A stretch of 64,000 nucleotides of DNA, from the IMG/VR virus record IMGVR_UViG_3300025687_000026, positions 1 to 64,000 of that record; one strand, 5' to 3'. This document shows positions 17,461-61,100 of this stretch, piece after piece. The notes under the pieces were generated by a model. That model saw only the letters and a program-made list of their open reading frames with translations, was not told where the DNA came from and did no database searches. The DNA comes from a virus. Made by a program: the position numbers and the translations under genes. How positions within the stretch are numbered: position 1 is the first letter of the stretch; each line of letters begins with the position of its first letter.

Positions 17461-18411
17461 ATGGCGAAGATGAGTAGAGAACAGAAGAAGACATACGGCA
17501 AACAGAAGAGCGATGAGATGAGCGAGCGGTGGTTCAACGCCATCGCTGACGGCATCAAGTCAGGCAACATCCCATGGCGTAAGCCGTGGAACGGTGGTGC
17601 TTCAGGTATGCCTCAGAACCTCAAGAGCAAGAAGACTTACCGTGGTGGTAACTTGATGGGACTGTGGTTCTCAGCCATGGCGGCTGGCTTCAGCGACCTT
17701 CGGTTCGCCACACGCAACCAACTCAAAGAGGCGGGCATGAGCATCGCTGGCCTGAAGAACGGGACTGGTTTCCCCATCCGCTTCTTCAAACCCAACACCT
17801 ACGAGAAAGAGAACGAGCGAGGCGAGGTTGAGGTTCGCTCAGGTTATGTCACCCGGTGGTATGAGGTGTGGTGCGTTGAGCAGTGCGAGGGTTACGAAGC
17901 CCCTCCCGTGAGCGACTCTCATCAACCTGTTCCCGTCCATGAGATGATGAGCAACTTCAACACCTATGTTGAGAGTCAACCCACGCTGACCTTGAACCGT
18001 GGCGGCAATCGTGCCTTCTATCGGCTCAACGGCGACACCATCCAACTCCCCGTCCACGAAGCATTCACCGATTCACTCGGCGAAGTCATGACGGCGTTTC
18101 ACGAAGCGGTTCACTCCACTGGGCACCCCCAGCGTTGTGAGCGTGACCTGAAGAACTCGTTCGGCTCCCCTGAGTATGCGCTTGAGGAACTGGTCGCTGA
18201 ACTTGGCTCCATGCTTACTGTTGTGCGCCTTGGTGGTGAGTTCAAACCTGATGCTGTCATGGAGGAAAACGCCAACAACATCGCCTACCTTCAGTCATGG
18301 CTCAAGGCTTGTAACGAGCAAGACAAAGCCCTCACCGCCGCATTCGGTCAGGCTCAAGCGGCCTCCGACTACATCGTTTCCTACTGTCAAAGCGAGGAGG
18401 TGAACGAATGA
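17461..18411 (+). CDS. ardC: ArdC-like antirestriction protein (ssDNA-binding domain + zincin-like domain)
   Basis: IPWRKPW, YRGGN, AFY, HEAVHSTGH, YALEELVAELGS, YLQSW. Confidence 0.85.
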   Translation: MAKMSREQKKTYGKQKSDEMSERWFNAIADGIKSGNIPWRKPWNGGASGMPQNLKSKKTYRGGNLMGLWFSAMAAGFSDLRFATRNQLKEAGMSIAGLKNGTGFPIRFFKPNTYEKENERGEVEVRSGYVTRWYEVWCVEQCEGYEAPPVSDSHQPVPVHEMMSNFNTYVESQPTLTLNRGGNRAFYRLNGDTIQLPVHEAFTDSLGEVMTAFHEAVHSTGHPQRCERDLKNSFGSPEYALEELVAELGSMLTVVRLGGEFKPDAVMEENANNIAYLQSWLKACNEQDKALTAAFGQAQAASDYIVSYCQSEEVNE

Positions 18412-28333: not shown

Positions 28334-28603
28334 ATGATGAGTGAAGTAACCGTATGGCGAACAGCGAGCATGGAAGGTAAATGGAGGGACGGCAAGGGCG
28401 ATGTGCGCCTTGCGTTCATTGATTACTACGGCAAGTCATGGATTGACTTGCGCATTGTAAATACAAGCGATGGTAAGAATCAACACACACGCCACGGCGT
28501 AAGGCTGACGCTACAGCAGATGAAGGAGATGCTCCCCCGCCTGCTGGAAGCCATCGAGGAATGCGAGGCTATCGAAGAGCAGCGTTCACGCAAGGAGGAC
28601 TGA
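28334..28603 (+). CDS. PC4/Sub1-like ssDNA-binding protein (transcriptional coactivator p15 family)
   Basis: YYGKSWIDLR...TRHGVRLTLQQ matches the PC4 pattern (IDIR..TxKGI.L). Confidence 0.7.
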   Translation: MMSEVTVWRTASMEGKWRDGKGDVRLAFIDYYGKSWIDLRIVNTSDGKNQHTRHGVRLTLQQMKEMLPRLLEAIEECEAIEEQRSRKED

Positions 28604-28642
28604 GTGAGCATGAGTGAACGGACGGAACACTGTCGCTGTGGC

Positions 28643-28666
28643 CTTCACTACTTAAAGCAGCATCAA
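28643..28666 (+). promoter_or_regulatory. 24-bp viral element copy 11
   Basis: CTTCACTACTTAAAGCAGCATCAA, 12 nt before ATG 28678. Confidence 0.72.
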
Positions 28667-28677
28667 AAGGTGATACC

Positions 28678-28902
28678 ATGAACCGAGCAAGAAACATCCC
28701 CGAAGTCGAATACGAACTGCTGAAGCATCTGATGTCCAGCGTGAACATCACTCCGCTTGAAGCGGCCATGGCTACTGACGAGCACAGCCGGAAACGATTC
28801 GATAATGGCGTGAAGAACATACTTGCCTTGCTTGACAACATGGTCGAGCGCAGGCTGCACCGACTACCCAAAGAGCACGCTGACTACAAAGCCAAGGAGT
28901 GA
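28678..28902 (+). CDS. Hypothetical protein
   Basis: SD AGGTGA, ORF. Confidence 0.7.
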   Translation: MNRARNIPEVEYELLKHLMSSVNITPLEAAMATDEHSRKRFDNGVKNILALLDNMVERRLHRLPKEHADYKAKE

Positions 28903-29222
28903 GTGCCGTGAACCGACTCTTTCCGAATGCACCTGAGTCTATCCGATGTAGGATGTGCACCAACATGTTTCCCAATCCCATCCTCAACGGAGCACGCGGC
29001 GTCACAGTTGTGTGTCCCACCTGCAGGACCAACATGTTCAGTGCAAAGACGCAGCGAGCGATGGCTCGTGCTATGACTGAGCCGACCAAGAGCGGGCCGA
29101 CCCCTGAGTCCGTGACTCCTGTGCCTGAAGTTACCACTCAGTTAGATGAGTTCGTCTTCAAGTGTCTCAACGACTACCGCTCTTCACTACTTAAAGCAGT
29201 ATCAAAGGAGGGTCATGAATGA
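28899..29222 (+). CDS. Zn-ribbon protein
   Basis: CRMC...CPTC. Confidence 0.6.
   Translation: MSAVNRLFPNAPESIRCRMCTNMFPNPILNGARGVTVVCPTCRTNMFSAKTQRAMARAMTEPTKSGPTPESVTPVPEVTTQLDEFVFKCLNDYRSSLLKAVSKEGHE
29182..29205 (+). promoter_or_regulatory. 24-bp viral element copy 12
   Basis: CTTCACTACTTAAAGCAGTATCAA within a CDS 3' end. Confidence 0.68.
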
Positions 29223-29800
29223 AGCAACTCTCCGAGATGGACTGGACTGATGGGACGGCCAAGGCACTGAAGGTGGCCGCCTCTCAGATTGAGAAGCGTG
29301 AGAAGTCCCTGCATGACAAGCATGAGGACTACTACGCTGACCCGCAACTCATGCTCATGGACATGACTACTGGCTCAAGCGTCATGCTGACGACTGAGCC
29401 ACACACTGGGGGTAAGACCCACGGCCATGGCTACCGTCGCTGCGCTGCTGTCGAGCAACGCATCCCTCGTAAGTTACCGATGAAGCGTGTCATGCGGCGC
29501 TTGTTGCGCATGGCGATTCGCAACTTCGTTCCCACAGATGCTGACCCCGATGAGATGAGCCCTGTCGTCAAGAAGGCTCTCAAGGACATAGCGGCCATCA
29601 TCGCTGACGACAGTATCGAAGACGACGACAAGCACGAGGCTGCGCTTGATGCAGCCCTTGAGAAGATTCTCGGGCACACGATGTCCACCCGTTCGGGTGA
29701 CACGCTGCTCAAGATGCAGGCCATTCCCCTGAGCACGGCGCACATGGATGTGAGCGCCATCAAGGCTGAAGTGGATGAACAACTGGAGGTAGAAGTATGA
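29219..29800 (+). CDS. Hypothetical protein
   Basis: ATGA overlap. Confidence 0.7.
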   Translation: MKQLSEMDWTDGTAKALKVAASQIEKREKSLHDKHEDYYADPQLMLMDMTTGSSVMLTTEPHTGGKTHGHGYRRCAAVEQRIPRKLPMKRVMRRLLRMAIRNFVPTDADPDEMSPVVKKALKDIAAIIADDSIEDDDKHEAALDAALEKILGHTMSTRSGDTLLKMQAIPLSTAHMDVSAIKAEVDEQLEVEV

Positions 29801-30357
29801 CCAAAAAGAACCGAGGAAAATGGACGACGAATGAAGAGAAGAAATTGGTGGGCCTGTTCAAGCAGGGACTCAAAGTGAAGCAGATTGCCCGAGTGCTCGG
29901 GCGAACCTTCGCTGCGACGAACACCCGCCTGAGTTACCTACGCAAGAGCGGAGCGCTTGATGAGAAGCGAGGCGCATCCAATGGACCAGTCACCCCTGCG
30001 ACCGGTGAGCGTGGACCAAACGACACACAACCAACTGGCGAAGATGCACTCCCGACAGCCATACAGAAGCGAGACATGGTCAGCATCAGTAGCGAGGAGT
30101 TGCGTTCACTGCGTGACGCTGTCAAGCAATTGAAGAAGAAGAACTCGGAAGGCCGTGCGAGAAACATCGTCGCTAACCGGCGAATCAAGACGCTGGAGAA
30201 TGCACTTGACTTTGCTGAGAAGAAGATGGACCAAGGCTTCGCCGCTCAAGAGTTCACTCAGCAACTGCAGCGTGAGAACGCAGCCTTGCGCAAAGCACTC
30301 GCTGCACTGAACGAAGTCATCCTCGTCTACACTGCACGAGGTGAAGACAGCGCATGA
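29797..30357 (+). CDS. Myb/GcrA-like HTH DNA-binding protein with C-terminal coiled coil
   Basis: KWTTNEEKKL...GLKVKQIARVLGRTFAA...RL. Confidence 0.7.
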   Translation: MTKKNRGKWTTNEEKKLVGLFKQGLKVKQIARVLGRTFAATNTRLSYLRKSGALDEKRGASNGPVTPATGERGPNDTQPTGEDALPTAIQKRDMVSISSEELRSLRDAVKQLKKKNSEGRARNIVANRRIKTLENALDFAEKKMDQGFAAQEFTQQLQRENAALRKALAALNEVILVYTARGEDSA

Positions 30358-30692
30358 GTGACAAGGCCGACGCTCTAAGGCGTGCTGTCGAAGCGCACAG
30401 TGAGAACGACCGGACTCTTGAACTGGCGACCAGCCTCGGCTTGAGCGTCGAGCAGTTCGCCGCCGCCAAAATGCTACAGATACGGATTGAACAAGCACCG
30501 AATTGGTTCGGTGTGCGCAGTCCTCACGGGTTGATGGTTGACTGCATTTACCTCGTGGCGAAGCGCAGCGGCATGAAGACAAGTGCTGTCAAGATGAGAG
30601 AGCACACGCTGAAGATTTTCGGAGTCGGCACTCAGCCTCGTCCGAGTTCATGGATGCAGGACTTCACTGAACTCGTCGAGGAGTTTGCATGA
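30354..30692 (+). CDS. Single cyclin-repeat TFB/TFIIB-like protein
   Basis: LATSLGLS..AAK....GVRSPHGL..CIYLVA...G aligns by eye with the archaeal TFB repeat (ASxLGLS..GKSPxGLAAAxIYIA). Confidence 0.6.
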   Translation: MSDKADALRRAVEAHSENDRTLELATSLGLSVEQFAAAKMLQIRIEQAPNWFGVRSPHGLMVDCIYLVAKRSGMKTSAVKMREHTLKIFGVGTQPRPSSWMQDFTELVEEFA

Positions 30693-31924
30693 GGTTCGCT
30701 ACACTCGCTGACATACACGAGCGTATCAGACTTGGCTCACCGAAGCGTGGTCAACTGCAGCGCCTGACCTCCAAGGAGGAAGCACTCTTCTTCTTCGAGT
30801 TCTTCTACCCCGAGCGTGCGAGAGTTTCAACGAGCACAGCCATCGGTAAGGTAGCGCACGAACTGTCGCTTTTCTACGATGTCGCCGCCAACATGATGCC
30901 CGACGAAGAGACATGGTATGCTCTTGCTTCTGAAAGCAACAAGTCAGCCTCCCGTGCGATGACTTGTCAGCAGGTGCTTGACCTACCTTTTGAGTCCATG
31001 TCGTTCACTGACATCGCTTACCGCTTCAATGAAGTCGAGGCTCGCCTCGTATGGCGTTACCTCATGCGAGCAACACCTGACATCAGCAAGCGTTCTTTTT
31101 TCGGTATCATGTCCACGCTCATGGACTTACCTTCCGCTGTTGTCAAACAGAGCATGACGCGTGACACACTCATCAAGATGTTCGATGACCCGAACTCAAT
31201 CCAGTCGCTGACCGAATGGTGGAAGCACTCCGCTTTCCCAACGCCTGCACGCTGGCGCTCGTGGCGCAAACTCACGCCACCCGAGGATGACCACATCGCT
31301 GTCATCGTTCCCAATGGACCGCTCTACTTCACTTGGAGAGGAGAGGCTCGGACCCGTTCAGGAGAGCGTCTGTCTTCCGTGCACGCCAACGACTACCTCA
31401 TTGAGTGGGCGGGCGACCATATCATCGACAGGATTCCAGCCAGCGACCCCGCACGAGCGTGGGCTGACCGAGTCCCTGATGATGCTGAGACATACACCCT
31501 CGCCGACCATGGAGCATGGGAGAATGTCATGCGCCGTCTGAACGATGATGATGTCCAGTGCGTCCGCCTCGTGCGAGCGTCGAACCACTACGAGCCTGAC
31601 GAGGTCATGGGATTCACCATGTTTCCCCATCGCTCTCGCGTCTTCCTCCGCCTGCATGAGATTGATGAGAGTCGCTGGACGCTTGCTGCGCTGGATGGAC
31701 TGGATGACTACGAGCCTGTTGCGAGGATTGAGAGTCCTGAGCCGACCATCCGTGAGGTGGAAGAAGATTCATGTGCTGTCGTGGAGGTGGCTGTGCTTTC
31801 CGTTGACAGTGAGGGTAACATCAACCAGTGCCTGTTCGTGGACATGCGTCCTGACTTGGGCATTGGCGATGTCACCCAAGTGACGGAACTGATTGAAAGG
31901 GGGTTAGAACATGCAGGTGACTGA
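30689..31924 (+). CDS. ATP-dependent DNA ligase-like protein, apparently catalytically degenerate
   Basis: N-terminal MRFATLA (ligase DBD-like), C-terminal FVDMRPDL..DVTQVTEL (motif VI-like); no KxDG adenylation motif. Confidence 0.5.
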   Translation: MRFATLADIHERIRLGSPKRGQLQRLTSKEEALFFFEFFYPERARVSTSTAIGKVAHELSLFYDVAANMMPDEETWYALASESNKSASRAMTCQQVLDLPFESMSFTDIAYRFNEVEARLVWRYLMRATPDISKRSFFGIMSTLMDLPSAVVKQSMTRDTLIKMFDDPNSIQSLTEWWKHSAFPTPARWRSWRKLTPPEDDHIAVIVPNGPLYFTWRGEARTRSGERLSSVHANDYLIEWAGDHIIDRIPASDPARAWADRVPDDAETYTLADHGAWENVMRRLNDDDVQCVRLVRASNHYEPDEVMGFTMFPHRSRVFLRLHEIDESRWTLAALDGLDDYEPVARIESPEPTIREVEEDSCAVVEVAVLSVDSEGNINQCLFVDMRPDLGIGDVTQVTELIERGLEHAGD

Positions 31925-32366
31925 TGACCGTGAGATGTGGCTGGGACTGGGTTACATCCTCGGAGGAGTTCGCTTCACCGTGAGCGTGTCCAAGGCCAGT
32001 GACCGGCCCGCCGGTTATCGTGTCCGCTCCAGCATTCGTTTCCAAAAGCCAGTGGCGCTTCATGCTGAGCGCTCTGTGAGTGAAGCACTCTTCGTAGCCG
32101 GGCTTGAGGTGCAGGAGACATACGAGAGTCAGCCTGAACTCATGGCGTGGGTGGCCTTCATCCTCCGCATGGATGATGCCTATAGCATCCGTAACATGTT
32201 TGCTGACCAAGACGGACTGCACATGTTTCTGTGGGTCTACGACAACCCACCGCCTCGTGACTACGAATCGTTTCTTCAATGGGCTGAGGCTTACGACGAT
32301 GAAATCGAGGCACTGAATCCTTCACTACTTAAAGAAGTATCAAAGGGGGATGACCGTGATGACTGA
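31911..32366 (+). CDS. Degenerate LAGLIDADG-like protein
   Basis: LGYILGGVRFTVSVSK....GYRVRSSIRFQ resembles the LAGLIDADG helix plus beta-hairpin but lacks the acidic catalytic residue. Confidence 0.4.
   Translation: MQVTDDREMWLGLGYILGGVRFTVSVSKASDRPAGYRVRSSIRFQKPVALHAERSVSEALFVAGLEVQETYESQPELMAWVAFILRMDDAYSIRNMFADQDGLHMFLWVYDNPPPRDYESFLQWAEAYDDEIEALNPSLLKEVSKGDDRDD
32320..32343 (+). promoter_or_regulatory. 24-bp viral element copy 13
   Basis: CTTCACTACTTAAAGAAGTATCAA upstream of the RFC/replication operon. Confidence 0.68.
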
Positions 32367-33309
32367 ACCGACGACACTTGACGAGATAGCGGGGCAGAGT
32401 GCCTTCGTTACCGAGGCTAAGCGTTGGGCAGAACAGGGTGAATATCCACCCGCCGTTCTTGTCCACGGTCCCCCCGGTGTCGGTAAGACCACGGTTGGTA
32501 AGGTGCTCGCTCGTGTATCGCTGGGTGAGTTCTTTGACCCGATGAACTTCATCATAACCAACGCCAGCGACGACCGTGGTATTGACTTCATTCGCAACGA
32601 ACTCAAGCAGTGGGCGACCATTAAGGCGATGGGCGCTGACCGACGGGTCATCTTGCTTGATGAGGCCGATGGCCTCACACCTGCAGCGCAAGATGCGCTG
32701 CGTCAAATTATTGAGTTGTTATCGGACAACTGCTTCTTCATTCTCACAGCCAACGACATCAGCAAGATTCGTCCTGCTATTCAGAGCAGGTGTCTCGTAT
32801 ATGAGTTCAAGCCCATCAGTCCTGAAGATGGGGCTAAGAGACTTGTTGAATTATTCAAAGGACACTTGAGTTGGATTGGTGACAGCGCAACACTCAGCGC
32901 TTGGAATAACACATTCATGCGACTCATGAAGTTCACTGGTGGCGACATGCGAAGCGCTATCGCTATCATGGAGAGTCATGGTGACGCTCCTCTTGTTGCT
33001 CTACAGAAGAGGCTATCCGATGGGGGTAACCCATCACAGGCCGCACTCGCCGCCATCAGTGGTGAGTATGGTGACATGCGTAAGCAATTCTATTCTATGC
33101 TTGACCGAGGGTTATCACTTACCTTCGTCATGCGAACATTCCATGAGAATCTAACCGAGTTCTTTGAGATGGATGCTGATACCACCTTCACGGTGATGGC
33201 CGTGCTTGGTGAGATGGTGCCTCACATGTATGAGTGGCCCATCGGTTCCTATTCCTTCGTGGATTGCCTCGTTGCGAGGCTGAAGAAGGAGGTGCACACA
33301 AATGAGTGA
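32350..33309 (+). CDS. rfcS: Replication factor C small subunit (clamp loader)
   Basis: GPPGVGKT, NASDDRG, ILLDEADGLT..AQ.ALR, SRC, GDMR. Confidence 0.92.
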   Translation: MTVMTEPTTLDEIAGQSAFVTEAKRWAEQGEYPPAVLVHGPPGVGKTTVGKVLARVSLGEFFDPMNFIITNASDDRGIDFIRNELKQWATIKAMGADRRVILLDEADGLTPAAQDALRQIIELLSDNCFFILTANDISKIRPAIQSRCLVYEFKPISPEDGAKRLVELFKGHLSWIGDSATLSAWNNTFMRLMKFTGGDMRSAIAIMESHGDAPLVALQKRLSDGGNPSQAALAAISGEYGDMRKQFYSMLDRGLSLTFVMRTFHENLTEFFEMDADTTFTVMAVLGEMVPHMYEWPIGSYSFVDCLVARLKKEVHTNE

Positions 33310-45041: not shown

Positions 45042-45646
45042 CTGAAATAATGGCCCTTGACATCGAGACGGGTAACTACTCGTATGAGATTGGAGGTTGG
45101 GACAAGCACGCCTTGTTCGAGCCTACCGTTGTCGCTACATGGGACGGAGCCAACGGCGATGTCTTCAGCAAACAGAGCATTGACATGGCTACCGCCAAGG
45201 TGCACGACCTTCACCCACGCACGCTGGGCGACCACCTGCAAAAGCACATTGACGCTGGAGGCGTCGTGCTCGGTCACAACATCAAGAAGTTCGACCTCCC
45301 AGTGCTCAACGCAGCACTGGACTGCTGGACAGCAGGCGACCTGATGAGCAAGTCTGAGAGTGTCATTGACACCAAACTACTCGTCAGCAAGGCCGCTGGC
45401 GGCAAGGACATCGCTACCAGCCTTGAGATGCTGGCCCGTAACACACTGGACATCGGTAAGAGCATGACAAGTGCCGATGCCCCTGAAGCATGGCGAGCAG
45501 GCCGCTACCTTGAGGTGGCTGAATACTGCTTGAAAGACGCTCAATTGACCTACGACCTCTACCAACACGGTCGTGAGAATGGAGTGGTGAAAAGCCGCTC
45601 GTTGGAGGACGGGTCAATTGTTGAAATTGAGGTGAACTGGGAATGA
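45038..45646 (+). CDS. DEDD/RNase H-like 3'-5' exonuclease (YprB-like)
   Basis: LDIET, GHNIKKFDL, YCLKD. Confidence 0.82.
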   Translation: MTEIMALDIETGNYSYEIGGWDKHALFEPTVVATWDGANGDVFSKQSIDMATAKVHDLHPRTLGDHLQKHIDAGGVVLGHNIKKFDLPVLNAALDCWTAGDLMSKSESVIDTKLLVSKAAGGKDIATSLEMLARNTLDIGKSMTSADAPEAWRAGRYLEVAEYCLKDAQLTYDLYQHGRENGVVKSRSLEDGSIVEIEVNWE

Positions 45647-47118
45647 CTGAAAACAAAAATCACAACGCACAACGACTGAACATCGAGGCTGTCAAGCGCA
45701 TCGTCGGCACTGTCCGCACCACGCTTGGTCCGATGGGTATGGACAAAATGATGGTTGACGGTGGCGGAAATGTCATCGTCACCAACGACGGAGCAACCAT
45801 TCTCCGTGAATTGGATAGCGCCCACCCTGCGGCGAAGATGATTGTCGAGGTGTCCAAGGTCCAAGAAACGAACTGCTACGACGGAACCACCAGCAGCGTG
45901 GTGCTCGCAGGTCAACTGCTAAGCAACGCCGAGGGTCTATTCGACAAGGGCCTTCACCCCAATGTCGTCAACAAGGGTTACACCAAGGCTCAGGCGATGG
46001 TGCTTGAAGAACTTCCGAAACTCTCAGTTGATGGTGAGCGCTCACTGCAAGCCATCGCACGCACAGCCATCACAGGAAAGTCATTGGAAGCATCCGAAGA
46101 CCGCGTTGCTCAACTCTGCGTCGACACCATCCGTGCTGTCGGCGATGCTTCCGATGTCCGTGTGCTCGCTGCGCCCGGTGGCTCGCTCAATGACTCCTAT
46201 CTTTTCGAGGGCGTCGTGGTCAACAAGGACTTCGTTACGGCTGATGGTGACTTCGAGAACGCCGTTACGCCCATCCTGCTGGTCAACAGTGGGCTGGAGG
46301 AGCAGAAGCAAGACGGGAATGTGCAAGTGCAGGTGGACGCTTCGTCCTACAGCACGCTGAAGAATGCAGGGCGTGAGGAACTGCTGGAAGCAGCCAAGCA
46401 TATCGAAGCCTCAGGTGCCCGAGTCGTCTTCGTTCGCGACGGGGTGCACGATACGGTCGTGCAATATCTACACAAGCGTGGTGTCTTTGTCTGCCGCCGT
46501 GTGCCCCCGAGCACCATGAAGCGTCTCTGCAACGAGTTCGGTGTCAACGCTTACCACACGCCCGAGAGCGACATGGAATTGTGCGAGGCTCTCATCGACC
46601 GTCGCCGCTACAACGATGTCGACTACCTCTTCGTCAGCAACAACCTCGCCTCAAGCGAGGCTACACTGGTGCTGTTTGGCGCAACGCAGTCGACGCTGGA
46701 CGAGGTTCAGCGTGGCTTTGACGACGCATTGGGCGTCGTGTCCCTCGTGGCCAACGGCGACAGCGTCTGCTACGGTGGAGGTGCAACTTACCTCGCACTG
46801 GCCTCTTGCTTGAGGAGCCGTGCTGCTGAGGTGGGTGGTCGTGCTCAGATGGCGATTGAAGCCTACGCTGACGCACTGGAGGCTATCCCCGGCACCATCG
46901 CTGAAAACGCTGGTCATGATGCACTGGACACTGTGCTCGCTATGCGCCACGCTGGACTGCCCTTCGGGCCCAATGTGGAGACTGGCGGTATCATGGACAT
47001 GGGTGAGTCTCAGGTCTTTGAACCGATGTCGCTCATCCGCAGCGCTATCACGAGCGCTACTGAGGTCACGACAGCCATCCTACGCATCGACGACATCATT
47101 GGTCGGCGTGGTGAGTAA
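45643..47118 (+). CDS. ths: Group II chaperonin (thermosome-like)
   Basis: TLGPMGMDKM, TNDGATIL, DGTTS, GGGA, ILRIDD. Confidence 0.93.
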   Translation: MTENKNHNAQRLNIEAVKRIVGTVRTTLGPMGMDKMMVDGGGNVIVTNDGATILRELDSAHPAAKMIVEVSKVQETNCYDGTTSSVVLAGQLLSNAEGLFDKGLHPNVVNKGYTKAQAMVLEELPKLSVDGERSLQAIARTAITGKSLEASEDRVAQLCVDTIRAVGDASDVRVLAAPGGSLNDSYLFEGVVVNKDFVTADGDFENAVTPILLVNSGLEEQKQDGNVQVQVDASSYSTLKNAGREELLEAAKHIEASGARVVFVRDGVHDTVVQYLHKRGVFVCRRVPPSTMKRLCNEFGVNAYHTPESDMELCEALIDRRRYNDVDYLFVSNNLASSEATLVLFGATQSTLDEVQRGFDDALGVVSLVANGDSVCYGGGATYLALASCLRSRAAEVGGRAQMAIEAYADALEAIPGTIAENAGHDALDTVLAMRHAGLPFGPNVETGGIMDMGESQVFEPMSLIRSAITSATEVTTAILRIDDIIGRRGE

Positions 47119-50780: not shown

Positions 50781-52189
50781 TATGCGTCACCTCTGTATGT
50801 GATTGGAGTGGACTTGCTACCACCGAGGGTTTCTTCGTCACTACTTCCACCGAGCACGCCCCTGTTCATGGCTTTACCGATGATAAACCCTGAGAGGCCG
50901 TGATTCTGAATTGTAATGATGGGAACCGTGACAATTTCGATGTCACCAAACAACGAGAAGTTTTGTTCAATGACCTGCTCGACGACTTCAGGCCGACGGC
51001 CGGTGTTCTGAGCACCCTCAAGAATGCCTTGCAGCACGCCTTCAATGCCGCTGTCAACGGTGAGGAAAACAAGGTCAGCGGTGTTCTCCGAAAGGTTGTG
51101 ACGCACTTCGGTGAGGATGCGGTTGCGTCCTTCATATTCGATGATTTTACCCGGTCGCAAGTCCCATGAAGCGGTGTGACCTGAACTGGTCTTGTTACCG
51201 GCGAGAAGGTTGTTGGCCTTCAACACGCTGCGTGCAACACGACGGGCCGCCTCGTTGTTTCGCACCGTGAAGTCTTCAATGACCTGCGGGTCCTGTTGCA
51301 CATCGCCACCACGACCACTCTGTCGCTCAGCATCGCTGACTTCGGCGTAGGCGGTATCGTTGACCGAGAGGGGTGTGCCTTGCACGATAACACGGTTGCT
51401 GGTGTTGTCGACTGGGTTGGTTCCAGCAGGCCCGGTCCTGTTGTTAGCGTCGACGAAACGACCGCTTTCACCGAAGTTGAACGGCACATAGAGCAGGCTA
51501 CCAAAGCGCTCAAAGTAGATGATGCGATTGTCATGACGCCCAAGGAAACGCAACGCCGTGACGAGGTTGACTCCGTAGAAGTCGGTAGCGATAAAGCGGG
51601 TGCTGTGACGGCGACGGTCACCGCTGGAGTTGCTGGGAGTGAGCGGAAGTGCGATGTTGACCGAGGTGAGCGTATCAGCGATGTCACGACCAAGACGCAT
51701 GGCCATGTCGGTCGTGCGGAAACCGACATCAATTGGCTGCGCTGCGTAACCTGCCGTGCTGTTGAAGCCCAGTTCACTGAGCGTTTTGCCTTTCATGTTC
51801 CGCACTGCAAAAACAGAACCCTTGTTTCCAGTGGAGTGACTACCGAGTGACAGGCGCTCAGTCTGCTGGTCTATAGAATACAACATCCTCGGACTATTTG
51901 AAGCAGCATCGCTACGCATGTAGAAGATGCGATTTTGTGAAGTGTGACCCGGCGTTGATGTGTGAGTCAAAACGACACTGTCTTGACGCTCGTCGATGGT
52001 GTAAGAGTGCGTTGATGCGACAGCGTAGGTTGAGGTCTTGCGTTGCTTGACGGTGACCTTAGCCTGCGTTGTGCCCTGCATAGCAATTTCACCAAGGTGC
52101 ACTGCGTTGTCGACGAAGACTGGCTTGCGCACTTGTTTCATCACGACATCGGTGTCACCGGTCGTGCGTTGCTGTGCGAGGAAGGTCAC
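50780..52189 (-). CDS. Putative tail hub/baseplate-like protein
   Basis: NRVIVQG...A...A..L...DLRPG.I pattern typical of hub proteins; position. Confidence 0.55.
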   Translation of the reverse strand: MTFLAQQRTTGDTDVVMKQVRKPVFVDNAVHLGEIAMQGTTQAKVTVKQRKTSTYAVASTHSYTIDERQDSVVLTHTSTPGHTSQNRIFYMRSDAASNSPRMLYSIDQQTERLSLGSHSTGNKGSVFAVRNMKGKTLSELGFNSTAGYAAQPIDVGFRTTDMAMRLGRDIADTLTSVNIALPLTPSNSSGDRRRHSTRFIATDFYGVNLVTALRFLGRHDNRIIYFERFGSLLYVPFNFGESGRFVDANNRTGPAGTNPVDNTSNRVIVQGTPLSVNDTAYAEVSDAERQSGRGGDVQQDPQVIEDFTVRNNEAARRVARSVLKANNLLAGNKTSSGHTASWDLRPGKIIEYEGRNRILTEVRHNLSENTADLVFLTVDSGIEGVLQGILEGAQNTGRRPEVVEQVIEQNFSLFGDIEIVTVPIITIQNHGLSGFIIGKAMNRGVLGGSSDEETLGGSKSTPITYRGDA

Positions 52190-55100
52190 GGAGCATCACC
52201 ACTGTGGTCGGATGTGTTGTAAGTCACATCGGCCTTGTGTCCCTTGCTATGCAGAGACTGACTGAAGCGGGGCTTGACTGAGTAGTCCTTACCGCTACCT
52301 GTGCGACGAGGAGCGTCGCTGCGATAGTGCTGCAGCGTGTTCTCGCTGATGAGCAAACGAGTCACTGTGGACTTGAGTGTGCCGGTGTCGAATGTAGGCA
52401 TCGCCGAACCGGGGAGTTTCGGACCCTTCGACACCGGCACAGTGTCGCTACTGCTTTCCATCAAATAAACGGGCTGGTAAGGAGCGTTTCCGTCAGGCAC
52501 CGTTGCACGCATGTAAGAGCCCGCTGAGGCGTTGGTGGACTCGTAGGTGAAGAGCCCATACTTGCCGCCAGCAGTGGCGGTGTAGAAGGTGCTTCCGTAT
52601 TGAGGTGTGCCGCTGGCGACAGCGCGAACAGGGCGGAAGACTTCGATGTGTTGGTTGTCCAGCAGACGCACCGGACGCAACATGAATCGCACTGTCGTGT
52701 CCGTGAGGTTATGAGGTGTCGTCGTGCTTGTCGTGGTCTGATATGGATTGCTGGTTGTGCCCGAACCGCTGCGACCCCAACCGGTGTCATCGAATGGGTT
52801 GACGAACGAGCGGGACTCAAGGATGTAGGTGCCGCCCATGGGCTTGATGTTACCAGTGTGGCTAAAACGCATGACCCCGCCTTGAGGTTGAGCAGCGAAG
52901 GAGAGGCTCGTTAGGTCATAGTCTTCCAGCGTCTGCGAACCTGACTGCAATCCACCCTGCAGGACGATACGCTGCCCAACACCACGGTCAGTGTGCAGGC
53001 TATGAGCCTCACTGTTGATGGCGACCATGTCGGCATTGATGCCGGTGGAGAAGGACTCAAGCGTGTCAGCGTCAATACCGATACGGGGCGAGGAGCGAGA
53101 GATTGGCTCTTTGTGCACCGAGGTGCCGGTGATGCTCTCGACACGGTCGCTGACTGCAGCCTCGGGCTTAAGCAAACCGTCCTCAGCAATTTCAAGGCGA
53201 CCACTGATACCACGCTTGACTTCGTCGGGCTGCAGCACATCATCACGAGGTCGCAGCAACCCTTGACCGAAGGTTGGCTCAGCCGTGTGATGCGAGAGAA
53301 CGACGCCCGAACCTTCGTAGACGGCGCTTAATTCGGTTAGAACATCCTCGTTGAACTGCGTTGGATAACGCACACCACGCCCACCACCCATGTCGCCGAC
53401 ACGCATGGCGTTGGTTGGGGCAAAGACATCGACAAGGACGAAGGCGTTGTTGTTGTTTGTGTCATTGAGTCGACCACCAAAGCGTGGAATGACTTCAGTT
53501 GGGCTGCTCAACACTTTGCCCGTAAGAGGGTCAACGACACCTTTGAAGTTGACAATCGGCTTACCTCCGTTCCACAACCGAGCGTAAGGTGAACGACCGT
53601 AAGTGCGGTCGTATTCGTATGCGTCGCCTGCGTCCCAAGCAGGACGGATGCCGAAGCCACGCACCGGTGCTTTGCGGACATCTTCACCGCGAGTGTTGCC
53701 CCACCAGTCGACAAGATAGTAGCCCGCCGCACCTTCAATGGTGCCGATACCAAGACCTTGGCTATCACCCCACCAGTCACGAGGAGCGTCAGCATTGTTG
53801 CGAATGATGCGAACAGGACAGCCAAACGAGCGAGTCATGCGGCGACCGTCGCTGTAGCGCACCTGCCATTCAGGTTTGTCGGGCCCGAGCATACCACTAA
53901 AGTTGGTCTGCCTTTCCATAACGCCAACATAGGTCGTTGGTAGCGTTTTTGGGGTCAAACCAGCACCACCAGCGTAATTCCAATCTTGCGATTCGTATTC
54001 GACCAGTGGACCGGGCTTGTAACCGAGGGTCAGGTTGCTGCTACTATAGGAGGATTCAGTGAAGGCACGCATGCCGTAGTGTCCCCATTGAGGGCGGTTC
54101 CACGGTTGACGCAGACCGAATCGGTAGCCGAATGGATAAGAGCGGGTGCTCACAAGACTCGATGCGATGCCGATGCCGTCGCTCGCAGTATAAGAAGCAG
54201 CATCGCCAGTGTCTTCCCAATGCTTACCGCCGCCTGCTTCGTAGAGGGCTGGTAGATTCCACGCAGCAGACCAAGCAGCATAGCCGTCAAGACGACTGAC
54301 GAGTGGTCCGCCACGGCTACCGCTTGGCCAATAGTGACTGAGCATGACAGTGTTGCTGCCTTGCGCTTGATAACCCGACATAATGTGAATGTTAGCAGCC
54401 GTCTCTGCTGTTCCGTCAGCGCCAAAGTAGACCTTGGACCCAACGGCCGGTGTAAAGAGGATGTCTGTAGTCAGAACAATGTTCACACCGCTTATTCCAC
54501 CGCCTGCAATTTTACCCAACACCTTACCTTCGACAAAAATGTAATCGCCTGCTGAAGCCCCGTCGCTACTGACATCAGCATTCATCGTGATGGTGGAAGG
54601 TGAACCGGCCGCTGATTGGAAAGTGCCTGAGAACTGACTGGGTGGCTCGGGCGTCTTGAAATCGAGGTGGAACGGACCAAGGCTGGCGGCGTAGTTGACG
54701 CCGTGATAATGCACCGTCTCAAAGTGTTCAGGCATGCTGTTGTAGGCCGCTTTGTCTACAGCCCGGTCATCAGTAGCGTCGCCCCATGTTCGGCTGCTGT
54801 CGGAGTAGAAAGTATGGGGTCGACCGAGGTTTGGATGCCATGCGCAAACGAATGCGTCAGGAGTGTAGAGACTGTTCGTATCTCGTGTCCCACCACGCAA
54901 CTGGTCGAGATTAAGCGACAAAACACCTTGCGACTTGGTCAATAGCGAAGTCGAAACTTCACGACTGTAAGGTCGACTTAAGCGGAGCACGGTGCCCGCA
55001 CTCGGCAAACTCAAAGCAGTCGTGATGAAACGATAGGGTTGGTTCATTGTTCCGCTACTGTAAGTCAAGCCTGTGCGTTTGGTGTAAGACAGCGTCTGAG

Positions 55101-58100
55101 TCACACCGTCATTATCGGTGTAGACCAGTTGTTGACCGTAGTAGGGCACTTCAGGGAACAACGAAGCGTCATCGACCTGAATGTAACCAACGCCCGTGCT
55201 CTGCACCGTGGCGACAGGTGAAATGGAGGTGTTAGCCAGCACCTTGGAGTAGATGTCAGGGCTAATGGAGGGATAGCCACCAAGCGTCAACTGAGCGCCA
55301 AGTGCTCCATGAGAGGCACGACAGAACTCGTAGTAGTTGTCAAGACGATAGAGGGCGAGATGGCGGAAACCTGTGGCCGTAGCGTCATCGGGGGAGTTTT
55401 TGTGCAAAATGCTCCACCATGGGATGTTCAATGTGTAACCGGGTGTGGCGTCAACGAACATGCTCGTGTGATAGGGGTGAGAGCGACGAGTGAAAGTGGG
55501 CGATTCGCTACCCTGCACACCCAATGCGTTGTAAAGCAGCATCGGTGGGAGATTGCTAAACTGACTGCCGTGGTCAGGGTCGTGGTCAAGGATGACCTCG
55601 TTGACGAAAATCTCGCAGCCGCGCACATCAGCAAGCGTCGCTTCAGAAAGGATGAGAGTCGCCGCACCAATCGCCGTCCCTCGCTCGCTGTCATACTTGA
55701 TGCCGACCACGAGGTGCACTTGTTGACCGGTGAGTTCACGAGCAGTGCCGTCGGGTAAGGCTGAAGCGTCACTGTTGTTATGATGGAAGCCAGTAAGTTG
55801 TTGCTTACGCAGGTTAGGCTGGATGACAATTTGATAGGCACCAACCTCGGCAGGGTCAGGGAAGTGTCCGTCCTGCGTGTAGTTGGCTCCTGCCTCAAGC
55901 ACGATGGAGTGGCCACCGGCTTTGTTGATGTCGCCAGCATCGCCCTTGGATGCGAGGACGCCGTAGCCATCAAAGCGCACCTTTGTTTCAAACATCAGCG
56001 TGAAGGCCCCACCATGGATGTCGCTGGGACCGCTCGGCGTAGCGGTCAGACTACCGATGCGCAGTTGCGGGTTGAGAGGGTGTAGGTAGTCGGTGACGCT
56101 GGCCGGTAGGGTTGTCGTGGTTGGGTCCACATTCTCCAGTAGACGGATGAGGTCGGCATCTTGGAGTGTCGCTCTGCGCTCGGCCTCGTGCTTGCCGTAG
56201 AGGCCTTGGTAAGCAGGATGAGCCCAGTGACCGGGTAGCATCGGCATCGTAGCGTTAACGAAGTGATGTCCCATACGAGGCATCGGCATTGGTGTGAGTT
56301 GCGGTTTGCTGTAGCGTGTGTGAGCCAGCAACGCAGTGCCGGTGATGTATTCAGTATGAGCCATGTCAGGGCTGTTACCGCTCACTTCGGCGTGGTCACG
56401 CAAGCGGCGTGCTGCAAAGAAGCGAGTGCTACCAGCAGGGATGTAGTAGGAGGGTGTGATGGTGGCGCTTGGATTGGCTGCGATAAACTCGGTGAAGTCA
56501 ATGTCACCAACCACGCCAGTGAAGGTGTCGCCGCTTATGCCCGTGTAGGACACTACGCACGAGTCGCCGCTGCTTGAAAGGCGCAAGAAACGACGGTTGT
56601 CGCTAACTTCTTTGGAAGCAAACGCTGCATCAAAAACACGGCTGTTGATGGTGGCTGAAGCGGTCAACACACCGCTGCTGTAAGAAGACACGGTGAGGCT
56701 TTGCGTCTCAACGCCGTTGCTGTGCGTGTAGACGGTTGGGAAGCGGTCCGTGTGGCTGTGCCCCATCTTTGTGACATGGAAGAAGAGCGTGCGGTCGTGC
56801 AATTCGTAAGACGACTGCAGTGGGCGGTTACCGGTAGTTTCAACCCATCCGTTCTTCGTGCTGTCGGGGAAGGCACTACCTTCAGCGATGTGCTCCCAAC
56901 CCACTTCGTTCATGGTCGGACCGTAGCGCGGTCCGCTGATGGCGTTGTCAAACAGATGTCCGAGGTGGCTCGCACCAAGGTCGGGGTGAATCATACCGCC
57001 GTCGCCCATTGTCTCGTTTTGATAGGCTTGCAGCCGGTCAAATCCGCTGCGGACAAGGATGTTACCGGGGATGGACTCAGGGTCAGGAAGTTGGACCACG
57101 AGGTTTGGCGAGGTTGAGGTGTTGGCTACCGAAGGAGCCAAACCGCTGGCGAGGCGCTCACCAGCAGCACGGAAGGCACGAATGACCACACCGAGTGGCG
57201 AGCCGCCGCTAAGCGTGTGTGTTTGTCCCGTGTCGTCAATGACTTCCATCTCTTCAAACTGCAGATGCTCGTTGGGAATCTCAAGCACATTCTGTAGTTT
57301 GATACGGTGCTTTTCAGCCAGTTGCGGATGCGCCAGTTCCTGCGCTTGCAGGACAGGTAACATAGCGCTGTTCGTTGTCTCAAAAGAGAAACGGACATTC
57401 CCAAGCAACTTCTCACCCGTAGTGTAGCCTACACCGCCGCTGACACGGTTCACCCAAGGCACAGCACCAAGTCCACGAGCGTTGACGGCAGGCATCGAGA
57501 GGCTACCACCGTCCATTCGTTTCCACACAACATGCTCAATGTTGAAGTTCTTAGCAGGGGAGCGAGCATACATCTCGTAAGCGTTGACATCTCCGACCCA
57601 AAAGGTGTTTTTTTGCTTCGTCCCACCAAACAGTGTAGAAGGTTGGACAGATGCGGAAGCATAGAAGTTAGCAGCAACATTCCGTTGCGCCCCTGCGCTG
57701 GCTGAGAAGTGGGAGCCGATGCTCTTGTCAAGGTCAAAAAAGAGGTCGCCGGTTTTCGTAAAGCAGGGCTCAGCGTTTTCCAAGTCACTCTCAGCAGTAA
57801 TCGGCGGATGAAGTGAGAACTCTGCGTCAAATGGAGCGCCGTCCAAAGCGTTCGTAACAGTGTAATCTGAGATAGTTGGACGAGAAGTTGCATTGTGGAT
57901 GAGTGCCTCGACATTCGGGCCTGCGTGCGCTGGAGCATAGAAGCGGTCTTGACCGTGAATGCGGTCGTCCCAGCGCACTGTGCCCGCCTTAGTGACATCA
58001 GCAGCGTCGACAAGACGCAGCCAGTCACCAACGCTCTTTTGCCCGTCACGGTCCGTCTTGGCGACAAGAGCCAATTCTGACTCATGAGAGATAACAAGCA

Positions 58101-61100
58101 TCGCACGGGAGAACACACCTTGCATGTGAGTGAGTTCTTTCTGCATCTCAGGCTCGTTTTCCATAATGGGCGGTGTGTTGAAGTCGCTACTGTCGGTAAA
58201 GGCGAGGGTGTAGGAACCTGAGTCTGTTCCCATATCGTAGCGGTCTTGCGGCGCATCGGGGTTGCTATTGGAGGGGAAGGTAGCCAACCCATCTGAACCG
58301 TTGTTCGGTGGTGCAGATTCAGGACTGTTCGGCATGGGGGTGATGTTCGGTAGATGGCCGAGCACGCTGGCGCAGCCCATGCTTCCACCGTAGGGTGAGA
58401 AACCAAGCGAAGCGTGCCATGCTCCCAAACCAGCAGCATATTGTCCGCTAAGCCCACCACTCAGTGTGTTGAGATAGGAATAGCGCTCACCAGCCCAACC
58501 TGCAACACCAACGGGTTTAGTTCGGTCAATAGCGTCAACGAGGCCGTTGAAGTGGACTTGTCCATAACCGCTCACCCTCGTCGTATTCCTCCATTGGTGG
58601 ACACCTGCCTTAACCCACACATACAGTTTTAGTCCCGATACACCGGAGCCCAGCGTTGGGTAGGTCAACGGGTTACCGTCAAGGTAGTTATCCCATGTCG
58701 CTACACTCTCAAAAGCACCGTAACCGCTGATTCGATTCTGTCCAAGGAAGAACTTGACTTTGTAACTACCACCGACATACAGGACGATGCGGCTGTGATA
58801 GGGAGCAAAGGCCGGTGAGTTCTCTCCGAGGATAGTTGTAGCAAACGAGTTAGTGGTGCGAATCCAACCCGTTTCAGGAATGTTGTAACCATCGTCAGGA
58901 TTGCTACCAATGTCGACGGTGATGAAGGACGAATTGAGAGCGATGCCTCCACCTCCTTGCGCATAGTCGACAATGTTAGCGCCTTCAAGTTCCCGCCACC
59001 CGTAACGGTCTTGCTTCATGGCGTTGCTAAAACTCGGTAAGAAGGTCCCGCCCATGGCTTTGAGTGCACCGCCGCCGGGATAGGTGTTGATAGCGGCACC
59101 GAGTAGAGCGGCTAACTCTTCTCCGTTTTGACAGCGAGTGGCGTCTACAGCGATGTATTCCATGTCGATGATGTCACGCGTGACTGTTTCAGACACAAAG
59201 GCACCCGAAGAGCCGTAAAGAATCTTGGTCGCCAGTGGAGCGGCAACACGGAAAGCACTGGGATGCAATTCGTTGCCGCTAATGGCGCTCTTTGACACTC
59301 GACTGTTGTCATCAGGATGAGGCGGATTGAAAGTAATTTGATTGTCCATCCACGAACCGCCCGGATGGTAACCGCCATCCATGTGGAAACACCAGTCTGA
59401 ACTACTCGCCATGGAGAAGCCCATGTAGACCCCGTGACGGTTGGGGTGAGCCATGCGGTAGTCATGAACATTGGACACCGTGAGGTTAGTCGCTCCTGAA
59501 GTGAACACTTCACCATACATACGACCAGCCTCGGGACGCTGGCGCAGAATCTCAACATTGGGCTTACCCTGAGCAGGTTCCCAGTTGATGGTTTGACGCC
59601 AATGGAATCGACCGCGGTTGAGTTGATAGGTGCTGGTCCACGGCATGTAGTGACCGGCGTCGTTCATGATGTGGTTGGGCATGAATGCCGTGTTGCTACC
59701 CGTGTGAGCAGGCACTTTAGACCAAGTGTTACCCACCGTGATAGCCCGTCCGGGCGCAGGTTCGTAGGTGTTGACGGGCGTCGCCTCCTCTTGCGTAAAT
59801 GGGAAGGCCTGACCGGGGCCAAAAATGAGGAATGTTGTTTTGTTTTCAACACCATCACGGTGGTCGTTGTAGCGGGCTGTTGGGTGAGCGAAGCGTAGCA
59901 CCAAAGGAATGGGCACCTGAATAGCAACGCCTGCCGTGTAGGGGGCGGGATTGGGATGGTCAGGGTGAACGGTCTGAGTCCCGCCCTTGATGTCAGGACT
60001 GAGGAGGCTATCCTGATTGAAGAACGGTGGATTGATGCTTCCACGATGCTGATTCAAAAGTGCTGTGCCGGGGAAGAAGGCCATGATTGCGTTGCAGTCC
60101 ACCAATGAGAAGGACGAGAGTGTCTCGTTGGCGTGCTGAATGCCCGCCACACCGGTCGGCCCGTTTGCATAAGGATGAGTGTATTTTTCGCTGTAGTCGT
60201 TAGCGCTACCGTCATTGACATCAATGGTTACACCGCTAAAGCCGCCACCGAAGAACAACGGAACCCAATGGTCGCTGCTGTCCCGACCCCCACGGAAGAA
60301 CACTTGCGACCGTGAGTGGAGGCTACCAAGCACACGCACACCGGCAGTCCTGAAGGCTCGCAGCGCACCGTAGCGCTGAATGGTTGGGTCGGTGGACGGT
60401 TTGGCGTCGGGTGGAGTTCCAGTCAATGTTGCTTCATCAATCAAGATGTGGTCAAGTGAAGTAAAACCGGAAGACGCTGTTCCACCGTTGACAGTAGTTG
60501 CGAGAGCGGAAGAGAAGTTTCCAAAATAGACCTCGGATTGACTGCTAAAGGACGCAACTTTCGCAAGGCTGCTGATGGTGTCTCCTTCGTTACCAGCAGG
60601 TCGGAAGAAGTGCCATGGCTTACCGCTACCGGCAGCCAACCCCACTTCAGGGAACTTAGGTGAGTTGATGTAAGAGTCGTTTGCATCGGTTTCAAGAGTT
60701 GGGTTGTTGACCATTGGTAGGATGTGGTCGCCTGAGTAAGCAGTAAAGCGTTGACCGTTGAGATTTTGTTCCCACACTTCCGTGTCAACAGGTTCGTTGC
60801 TTGAGTCGACGAGAACCGGTGAGGCAGTGTTGGCGTTAGAGCCGCGCCCCTTGGTGCTCACTTGCACGACAGTGTAGGGAATGTAGCCACACTCTGCTCT
60901 TAAGCCAGCATCAATTTGAGCATCGGTGGCTGCCCGGTTGTTGGAACTGGGCAGGGTCACACCATCCTTGGTCATCTTGACAAACTGCACATCCCCGTGC
61001 TCAACATGGGCGGCTTGAATCGCCATGTCACGATGTAGCGTGGCGGTGAAAAAGTCAGAGATTGGTCGCACTTTACGGGCCGTGTTGTAAGCACGAATGC

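Follow-up and report, generated by a model that had tools for sequence, protein, structure and literature searches.

Sulfolobus TFB3, a truncated paralogue of the archaeal transcription factor B (TFB), is not active alone and modulates initiation through the normal complex of TFB with the TATA-binding protein (TBP). In phage T4, the minimal sigma factor gp55 acts together with gp33 and the gp45 clamp, thereby tying late transcription to the replication clamp. We know of no archaeal virus factor that acts on TBP or TFB; the known ones target RNA polymerase or DNA. In TFB-dependent initiation, the TBP stirrup is flanked by both TFB repeats, and major-groove reading relies most on the turn of the helix-turn-helix (HTH) and the first part of its last helix (PMC4581349). 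Polymerase recruitment by TFB depends on its ribbon and B-reader (PMC5569661, PMC4581349). TFB homologues have been annotated in other archaeal viruses: rudiviruses (for example SSRV1), the Asgard virus JinchiV1 and Aoguangviridae YSH_150918 (PMC10768690, PMC13700489). In this study, we analysed a gene for a 112-aa protein, hereafter mini-TFB, in a 64,000-nt stretch (the window) of the 107,060-bp virus record IMGVR_UViG_3300025687_000026, which is rated 100% complete. The window encodes a family B DNA polymerase, RFC, an SNF2 helicase, a PD-(D/E)XK nuclease, an ERCC4 nuclease and a thermosome-type chaperonin; judged by these genes, the set is that of magroviruses, which are tailed viruses with marine group II archaea as their assigned host (PMC5434244).

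Mini-TFB was shown to consist of a single cyclin-type repeat, related by homology to the TFB of archaea and the TFIIB of eukaryotes, with an extra helix in front. AlphaFold2 applied to the family alignment yielded a mean predicted local distance difference test (pLDDT) score of 90.3 and a model in which a helix (residues 3-16) is followed by a five-helix bundle (residues 21-27, 32-47, 57-71, 78-89 and 101-111). When this model was compared with the PDB using Foldseek, the TFB core of P. woesei (1ais_B) ranked first (probability 0.99, 21% identity), and nearly all of the remaining top 50 matches were TFIIB, Brf1 or cyclins; BFVD, the collection of predicted viral structures, contained no close structural relative. 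VIA-align comparisons with TFIIB and TFB gave Z scores of 9.3-10.9, and the sequence evidence matters because values in that range are only middling for helical bundles. The single sequence matched nothing in the PDB, the close-family profile (A1) gave nothing meaningful there (best E 0.79), and the close-family HMMER profile matched no TFB among 1.84 billion proteins. A wider alignment of 43 diverse members (A2) was required for PDB matches, and its profile recovered human TFIIB (5e-7), P. woesei TFB (3e-6), cyclin C (4e-4) and Brf1 (1.6e-3). Aligned by hhalign with repeat 1 in a profile of 115 haloarchaeal TFBs, A2 reached a probability of 90% (E 1.7e-6). The 112-aa protein on its own had no match in Pfam; the TFIIB repeat family PF00382 was matched below its gathering threshold of 23.6 bits by 15 of 31 close and 19 of 43 wider homologues, with 22.9 bits for the top family member. 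Ten family members compared with NCBIfam produced one weak TFB match (P0054, E 0.22, profile positions 228-284 of 312), and the nearest neighbours of mini-TFB in a protein-language-model search included clusters of ~105-135 aa bearing PF00382. The results of AlphaFold2, Foldseek, the A2 profile, PF00382, hhalign and the language model agree, which gives good support to both the cyclin fold and a TFB/TFIIB ancestry.

The protein contains no Cys pairs and no zinc ribbon (PF08271), and has no room for a ribbon or a B-reader. Its cyclin bundle begins at about residue 19, directly after the single leading helix, so that B-reader and B-linker are absent, and it comprises one repeat rather than the two tandem cyclin repeats of TFB and TFIIB. 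No PF08271-like or TFIIB-type ribbon partner gene was detected elsewhere in the virus genome. An earlier prediction made from the letters of the sequence alone (the original prediction) had described the protein as one cyclin repeat of TFB lacking the zinc ribbon and the B-reader. Both statements were confirmed, the first by the confident model, the top rank of 1ais_B and the TFIIB match, and the second by the missing Cys pairs and the position of the bundle. The cyclin fold on which that prediction hinged was recovered by AlphaFold2 and Foldseek as a TFB/TFIIB-type bundle, and the profile comparison with the TFIIB repeat that it had proposed as a check is the hhalign result given above.

The balance of the sequence evidence places mini-TFB nearer the N-terminal TFB repeat. 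With all five query alignments, hhalign scored repeat 1 above repeat 2 (for A2, 40.1 and 90% versus 28.5 and 41%), the TFB profiles used in this comparison being all haloarchaeal. A2 was aligned to residues 137-199, that is repeat 1, of a single Halobacterium TFB; HMMER gave 26.6 bits to repeat 1 and 4.4 bits to repeat 2 of human TFIIB; and the sub-family alignment A7 was placed on repeat 1 of P. woesei TFB. Pointing in the opposite direction, A2 was placed on repeat 2 of both P. woesei TFB and Brf1, and identity in the structural alignments of mini-TFB was 14-20% to repeat 2 versus 8-9% otherwise. Structure, as modelled, cannot decide between the two repeats. The original prediction had assumed the C-terminal repeat, which reads the B recognition element (BRE); this assignment is not established, and the five hhalign comparisons and the HMMER alignment with human TFIIB favour the N-terminal repeat.

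The same prediction had placed the letters GVGTQPRP where TFB has its BRE-recognition helix, and in position this was correct for either repeat. Residues 90-100 (G-V-G-T-Q-P-R-P-S-S-W) are non-helical in the model and constitute the most conserved stretch of the family. This 11-residue Pro-rich loop was modelled at the expected HTH turn and start of the BRE-reading helix, with G-T-Q-P-R-P-x-x-W in place of both elements of the TFB repeat. T93, Q94, P95 and W100 are invariant in 31/31 close members, and among the 43 wider members P95, P97 and W100 are each retained by 38 to 42. To judge from the model, canonical HTH reading is unlikely to be retained in mini-TFB. Lys70, present in 28 of 31 close sequences, was aligned by HMMER with Arg169 of human TFIIB, in which the R169E substitution prevents binding to TBP-TATA (PMC6004067), and the G-x-K-x-S/T turn preceding helix 4 is also retained. 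The correspondence of Lys70 with Arg169 may be read as a weak pointer to TBP binding, and it is the sole specific one.

Around 30 close homologue clusters of mini-TFB were found, nearly all of them 111-113 aa long and 52-86% identical, and searching 1.84 billion representative proteins with the close-family profile extended the family to ~40 clusters at 50% identity. Three long tandem-repeat open reading frames from unrelated assemblies (P0039, P0059 and P0066) were rejected as spurious, since they matched through repeated short motifs and are not fused forms. These excepted, the members range from 66 to 211 aa and include no full-length TFB, and a search for longer family proteins covering 371-2000 aa was empty. 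Non-synonymous divergence (dN) was 0.22-0.44 with synonymous sites saturated; the low dN against this saturation indicates a real, selected gene, and mini-TFB is a virus-specific protein under purifying selection. The family was nearly absent from 185,579 prokaryote species genomes, in which the sole match was a single 30-kb contig (L022, NZQM01000111.1). This contig is binned with a metagenome-assembled genome of Parvibaculum, an alphaproteobacterium, carries g193 - mini-TFB - ligase-like - g151 - RFC, and is almost certainly a mis-binned viral contig. Two family members searched by tblastn against 50,697 phage records, a collection that appears to hold no magrovirus, gave no match. N-terminal extensions of 55-100 aa were observed in P0040 (176 aa), P0042, P0043 and P0033, and the N-terminus of P0040 starts with a ribbon-like CxxC...CxxC. 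The idea of a TFB split over separate genes was discarded: neither the CxxC extension of P0040 nor the small Cys-rich neighbours carry a TFIIB-ribbon Pfam signal, and the extensions have no homologue in the genome of the window.

The PC4-like, HTH and mini-TFB genes are located on the + strand in a tightly packed gene run (Table 1). Four nucleotides (ATGA) are shared by the stop of the HTH gene and the start of mini-TFB, and the stop of mini-TFB shares another four with the start of the downstream gene g411. Across 27 related loci, the order mini-TFB, g411, g151, RFC small subunit (RFC-S), g448 was constant wherever it was covered (L022 ends inside RFC-S), and it held down to 35% identity for mini-TFB and ~22-23% for g411; g411 followed mini-TFB directly in most of these loci. 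Given this constant synteny, mini-TFB belongs to the core genes of the replication block rather than to a regulatory cassette. AlphaFold2 modelled g411 with a pLDDT of 83 and the predicted protein has the three-domain ligase fold; Foldseek matched it to 2cfm at 1.7e-11, and there were 83 matches at <=1e-3, of which all 50 listed were DNA ligases. Among 14 homologues no lysine is invariant at any position, including that of motif I (KxDG), the residue adenylated in ATP-dependent DNA ligases. Only K134 and K163, which belong to the helical domain at the N-terminus, come close to invariance, and inspection by eye shows V-P-N-G at the place of motif I. Lacking an invariant lysine, g411 is probably not an active ligase; it is conserved in all magrovirus loci examined, probably as a ligase relative without catalytic activity. 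The N-terminus of g151 (W-L-G-L-G-Y-I-L-G-G) looks LAGLIDADG-like by eye, without the acidic residues and without Pfam support.

Table 1. Features of the mini-TFB region, with positions counted from the first letter of the window.
Feature	Position	Strand	Remark
PC4-like small protein, 89 aa	28334..28603	+	PF02229
14-nt core of 24-bp element, invariant	28644..28657	+	20 nt upstream of 74-aa gene
CxxC...CxxC small protein, 107 aa	28899..29222	+	closest relatives only; TFIIB-type ribbon undetected
Promoter-like element, copy heading g193 - HTH - mini-TFB - ligase-like - g151	29183..29196	+	
Conserved 193-aa protein (g193), heads mini-TFB unit	29219..29800	+	no family assigned
GcrA/Myb-like HTH (residues 4-67) with C-terminal coiled coil	29797..30357	+	variable accessory gene
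Mini-TFB, stand-alone single TFB/TFIIB-type cyclin repeat, 112 aa	30354..30692	+	fold and profile comparisons
Divergent ATP-dependent-DNA-ligase-fold protein (g411), 411 aa	30689..31924	+	AlphaFold2 and Foldseek
Conserved 151-aa protein (g151)	31911..32366	+	no family assigned
Promoter-like element, last copy, heading RFC gene	32321..32334	+	
Replication factor C small subunit, clamp loader	32350..33309	+	AAA 9e-15, DNA_pol3_delta2 1.7e-14

Transcription of this region can be read from a repeated element. Its 14-nt core, T-T-C-A-C-T-A-C-T-T-A-A-A-G, occurs in 13 exact copies from 9443 to 32321, all on the + strand, versus 0.18 expected by chance, and every copy is located 20-52 nt upstream of a start codon. 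At the same positions ahead of the g193 and RFC homologues, the majority of the more distantly related loci (L005-L021) have T-T-G-A-T-A-T-A-T-A-A-A-G-C-A, ~22 nt before the ATG, which by its sequence is a canonical archaeal TATA box. Because the relatives have TATA boxes at the same positions, the 24-bp element is best interpreted as a viral early/middle promoter, and the TATA box is best read as degenerate (C-T-A-C-T-T-A-A-A-G) in the lineage of the window only. The element would most simply be a promoter, often for leaderless or short-leader mRNAs. Its upstream half varies by lineage, being TTCACTAC in the window versus TTGATAT, TTCCTAT or TAGTAT elsewhere. The copies at 28644 and 29183 divide the PC4-like gene, the pair formed by the 74-aa and CxxC genes, and the mini-TFB gene into three units, and all junctions within the unit g193 - HTH - mini-TFB - g411 - g151 overlap by 4-14 nt. 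The virus genome was searched and contained no TBP and no TFB signal besides mini-TFB; since these are absent and TATA-box promoters are used, the virus must rely on the TBP, TFB and RNA polymerase of its host.

The interpretation that we rank first, tentatively and with somewhat less than even confidence, is that mini-TFB docks on TBP or on the TBP-promoter complex and serves as a competitor or co-factor. A lone repeat would be unable to recruit polymerase because the ribbon and the B-reader are absent, and mini-TFB alone should be incapable of starting transcription. It may dock on the host initiation machinery as a TFB repeat does, either at the TBP stirrup or on the complex of TBP with the promoter, and once docked it could shift initiation between host and viral promoters. 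As mini-TFB is made from a unit of replication genes, any effect on initiation would be timed with genome replication. Several points weigh against this interpretation. The gene was never found among obvious regulators and always precedes the ligase-fold gene within the replication block; the usual start of the DNA-reading helix is replaced; a distant sub-clade of the family has Asn instead of Lys70; and a general blocker of TBP would harm the viral TATA-box promoters too.

The position of the gene could also reflect a function in replication itself, which we regard as possible although doubtful. By analogy with Orc6, the TFB-type fold may have been recruited to the viral replisome to serve as a DNA-binding or adaptor subunit, most likely as the partner of the dead ligase-fold protein. 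The constant order from mini-TFB to g448, which persists at low identities, the 4-nt overlap of mini-TFB with g411, the PC4-like gene adjoining mini-TFB upstream in two loci (L026/27) and the appearance of human Orc6 among the fold matches (rank 26) would all be consistent with such an accessory role. However, early/middle gene order in viruses is weak evidence of a physical association, a precedent is known neither from archaea nor from viruses, and the sequence kinship of mini-TFB to TFB/TFIIB far exceeds that to any replicative protein.

It is unlikely that mini-TFB is a generic cyclin-fold module which binds a protein outside initiation and replication, for example as a regulator of a viral or host enzyme, and that its likeness to TFB merely records ancestry. 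Cyclin C has the lowest root-mean-square deviation to the model (2.4 A over 93 residues, Z 10.6) and is matched by the profile, and the top conserved residues of the family (Arg55, Asp63-Cys64, Tyr66, Trp100 and the TQPxP loop) include none of the known functional residues of TFB, but TFIIB and TFB outscore cyclins in every sequence comparison, and no partner kinase is evident near the gene.

Little probability is given to a broader scheme built on analogy, in which mini-TFB would work with the dead ligase-fold protein and with both clamp loader and clamp so that viral transcription is licensed by replicating or nicked viral DNA, as a counterpart of T4 gp55/gp33/gp45, or would be an Orc6-like replication factor. 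A C-terminal PIP-like motif of mini-TFB noted by eye was rejected, as it lies inside the packed last helix and its Gln is unconserved; no credible PIP motif for clamp binding as in T4 was seen by eye. Equally improbable is a sigma-like specificity factor, which would recognize the 24-bp element by its upstream half and bring TBP and RNA polymerase to viral promoters, in keeping with the redirection of TBP that was one of two options in the original prediction. In its favour, the promoters of the virus are unusually alike, their core being identical in 13 copies, and a lineage-specific upstream half invites a virus-specific reader, but the candidate reading loop is invariant while that half differs among lineages, the sequence favours the N-terminal and not the BRE-reading repeat, the ribbon and B-reader for polymerase recruitment are missing, and a separate TFIIB-type ribbon gene was undetected in the genome.

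The genes upstream of mini-TFB had been grouped with it by the original prediction as a three-gene kit for hijacking transcription. The individual genes were identified as predicted. The PC4-like protein scored 25.4-25.5 bits against the PF02229 gathering threshold of 25, 10/10 homologues also matched this family, and a weak match to the PC4 homologue BPSL1147 (5a4n) was obtained. The HTH protein, of which the gene overlaps mini-TFB, matched the phage families phrog_323 (4.3e-9) and phrog_31591 (1.9e-6); its Pfam scores for GcrA and Myb (15.4 and 14.6 bits) were below the thresholds of 24.4 and 26.9, and HTH_23 was also sub-threshold. The kit as such was not supported, because the elements at 28644 and 29183 mark separate units and the HTH gene is confined to close relatives (L001-L004), apart from a partial match of ~50 aa to the HTH region in the two distant loci L026/27; elsewhere other genes occupy this slot. 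The PC4-like gene is present in 19 of the 27 related loci, most of the others ending short of that upstream region, and lies immediately upstream of mini-TFB in L026/27. From its family membership, the PC4-like protein is probably a single-stranded-DNA-binding protein of the replication module, and such a role fits the gene at least as well as a transcriptional one.

Three further genes of the window were recorded. A virus-encoded group II chaperonin is located at 45643-47118 (+; Cpn60_TCP1, 1.6e-122), and a protein combining ArdC-N with a zincin-like metallopeptidase (MPTase-PolyVal), an anti-restriction-type gene of the early region, at 17461-18411 (+). One uninterrupted open frame of 3,899 aa extends over 52186-63885 (-).

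Magroviruses are among the most abundant archaeal viruses of the surface ocean, and mini-TFB may bear on their takeover of host gene expression. A conserved protein of 112 aa is easily expressed and therefore provides a direct handle on this takeover. Mini-TFB represents a natural minimal version of the TFB repeat, and its strict linkage to a lysine-less ligase-fold protein is a second testable puzzle. No discussion of the gene was found in the magrovirus papers that were examined.

Compared with the archaeal TFB and TFIIB cores (1AIS/1D3U; human 1VOL/1C9B/5WH1), mini-TFB shares the five-helix cyclin repeat, with profile homology over helices 1-4, and retains the R-S-P cap before helix 3 and, where TFIIB has Arg169, a basic residue. 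It differs in having one repeat instead of two, in lacking the zinc ribbon, B-reader and B-linker, in a helix 4 that is about one turn longer and in the invariant Pro-rich loop ending in Trp. The TFB homologues of rudiviruses, Asgard viruses and Aoguangviridae are, like mini-TFB, virus-encoded relatives of a host initiation factor. The rudiviral homologue differs from it in being near full length (270 aa), and matches it weakly (Foldseek E 1.3). In the ICTV profile of Aoguangviridae, the family of a magrovirus relative, the map legend of YSH_150918 lists 'TFB' just before 'RFC-S' (PMC10768690). This neighbourhood is the same as that of mini-TFB, and the two genes may be orthologues. Sulfolobus TFB3 resembles mini-TFB as a cut-down TFB, whereas its composition is the reverse: TFB3 has the ribbon without the DNA-binding core, and mini-TFB has the core repeat only. 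Eukaryotic Orc6 likewise presents a TFIIB-type fold in a replication setting, but it has two domains, and its relation to mini-TFB is a weak fold match (6kvg, rank 26) with no sequence signal seen. T4 gp55 is comparable as a virus-encoded minimal fragment of an initiation factor, although it belongs to the bacterial sigma lineage. Set beside these systems, mini-TFB is a TFB relative carried by a virus, cut down to a single repeat, equipped with a family-specific loop and fixed in the replication module.

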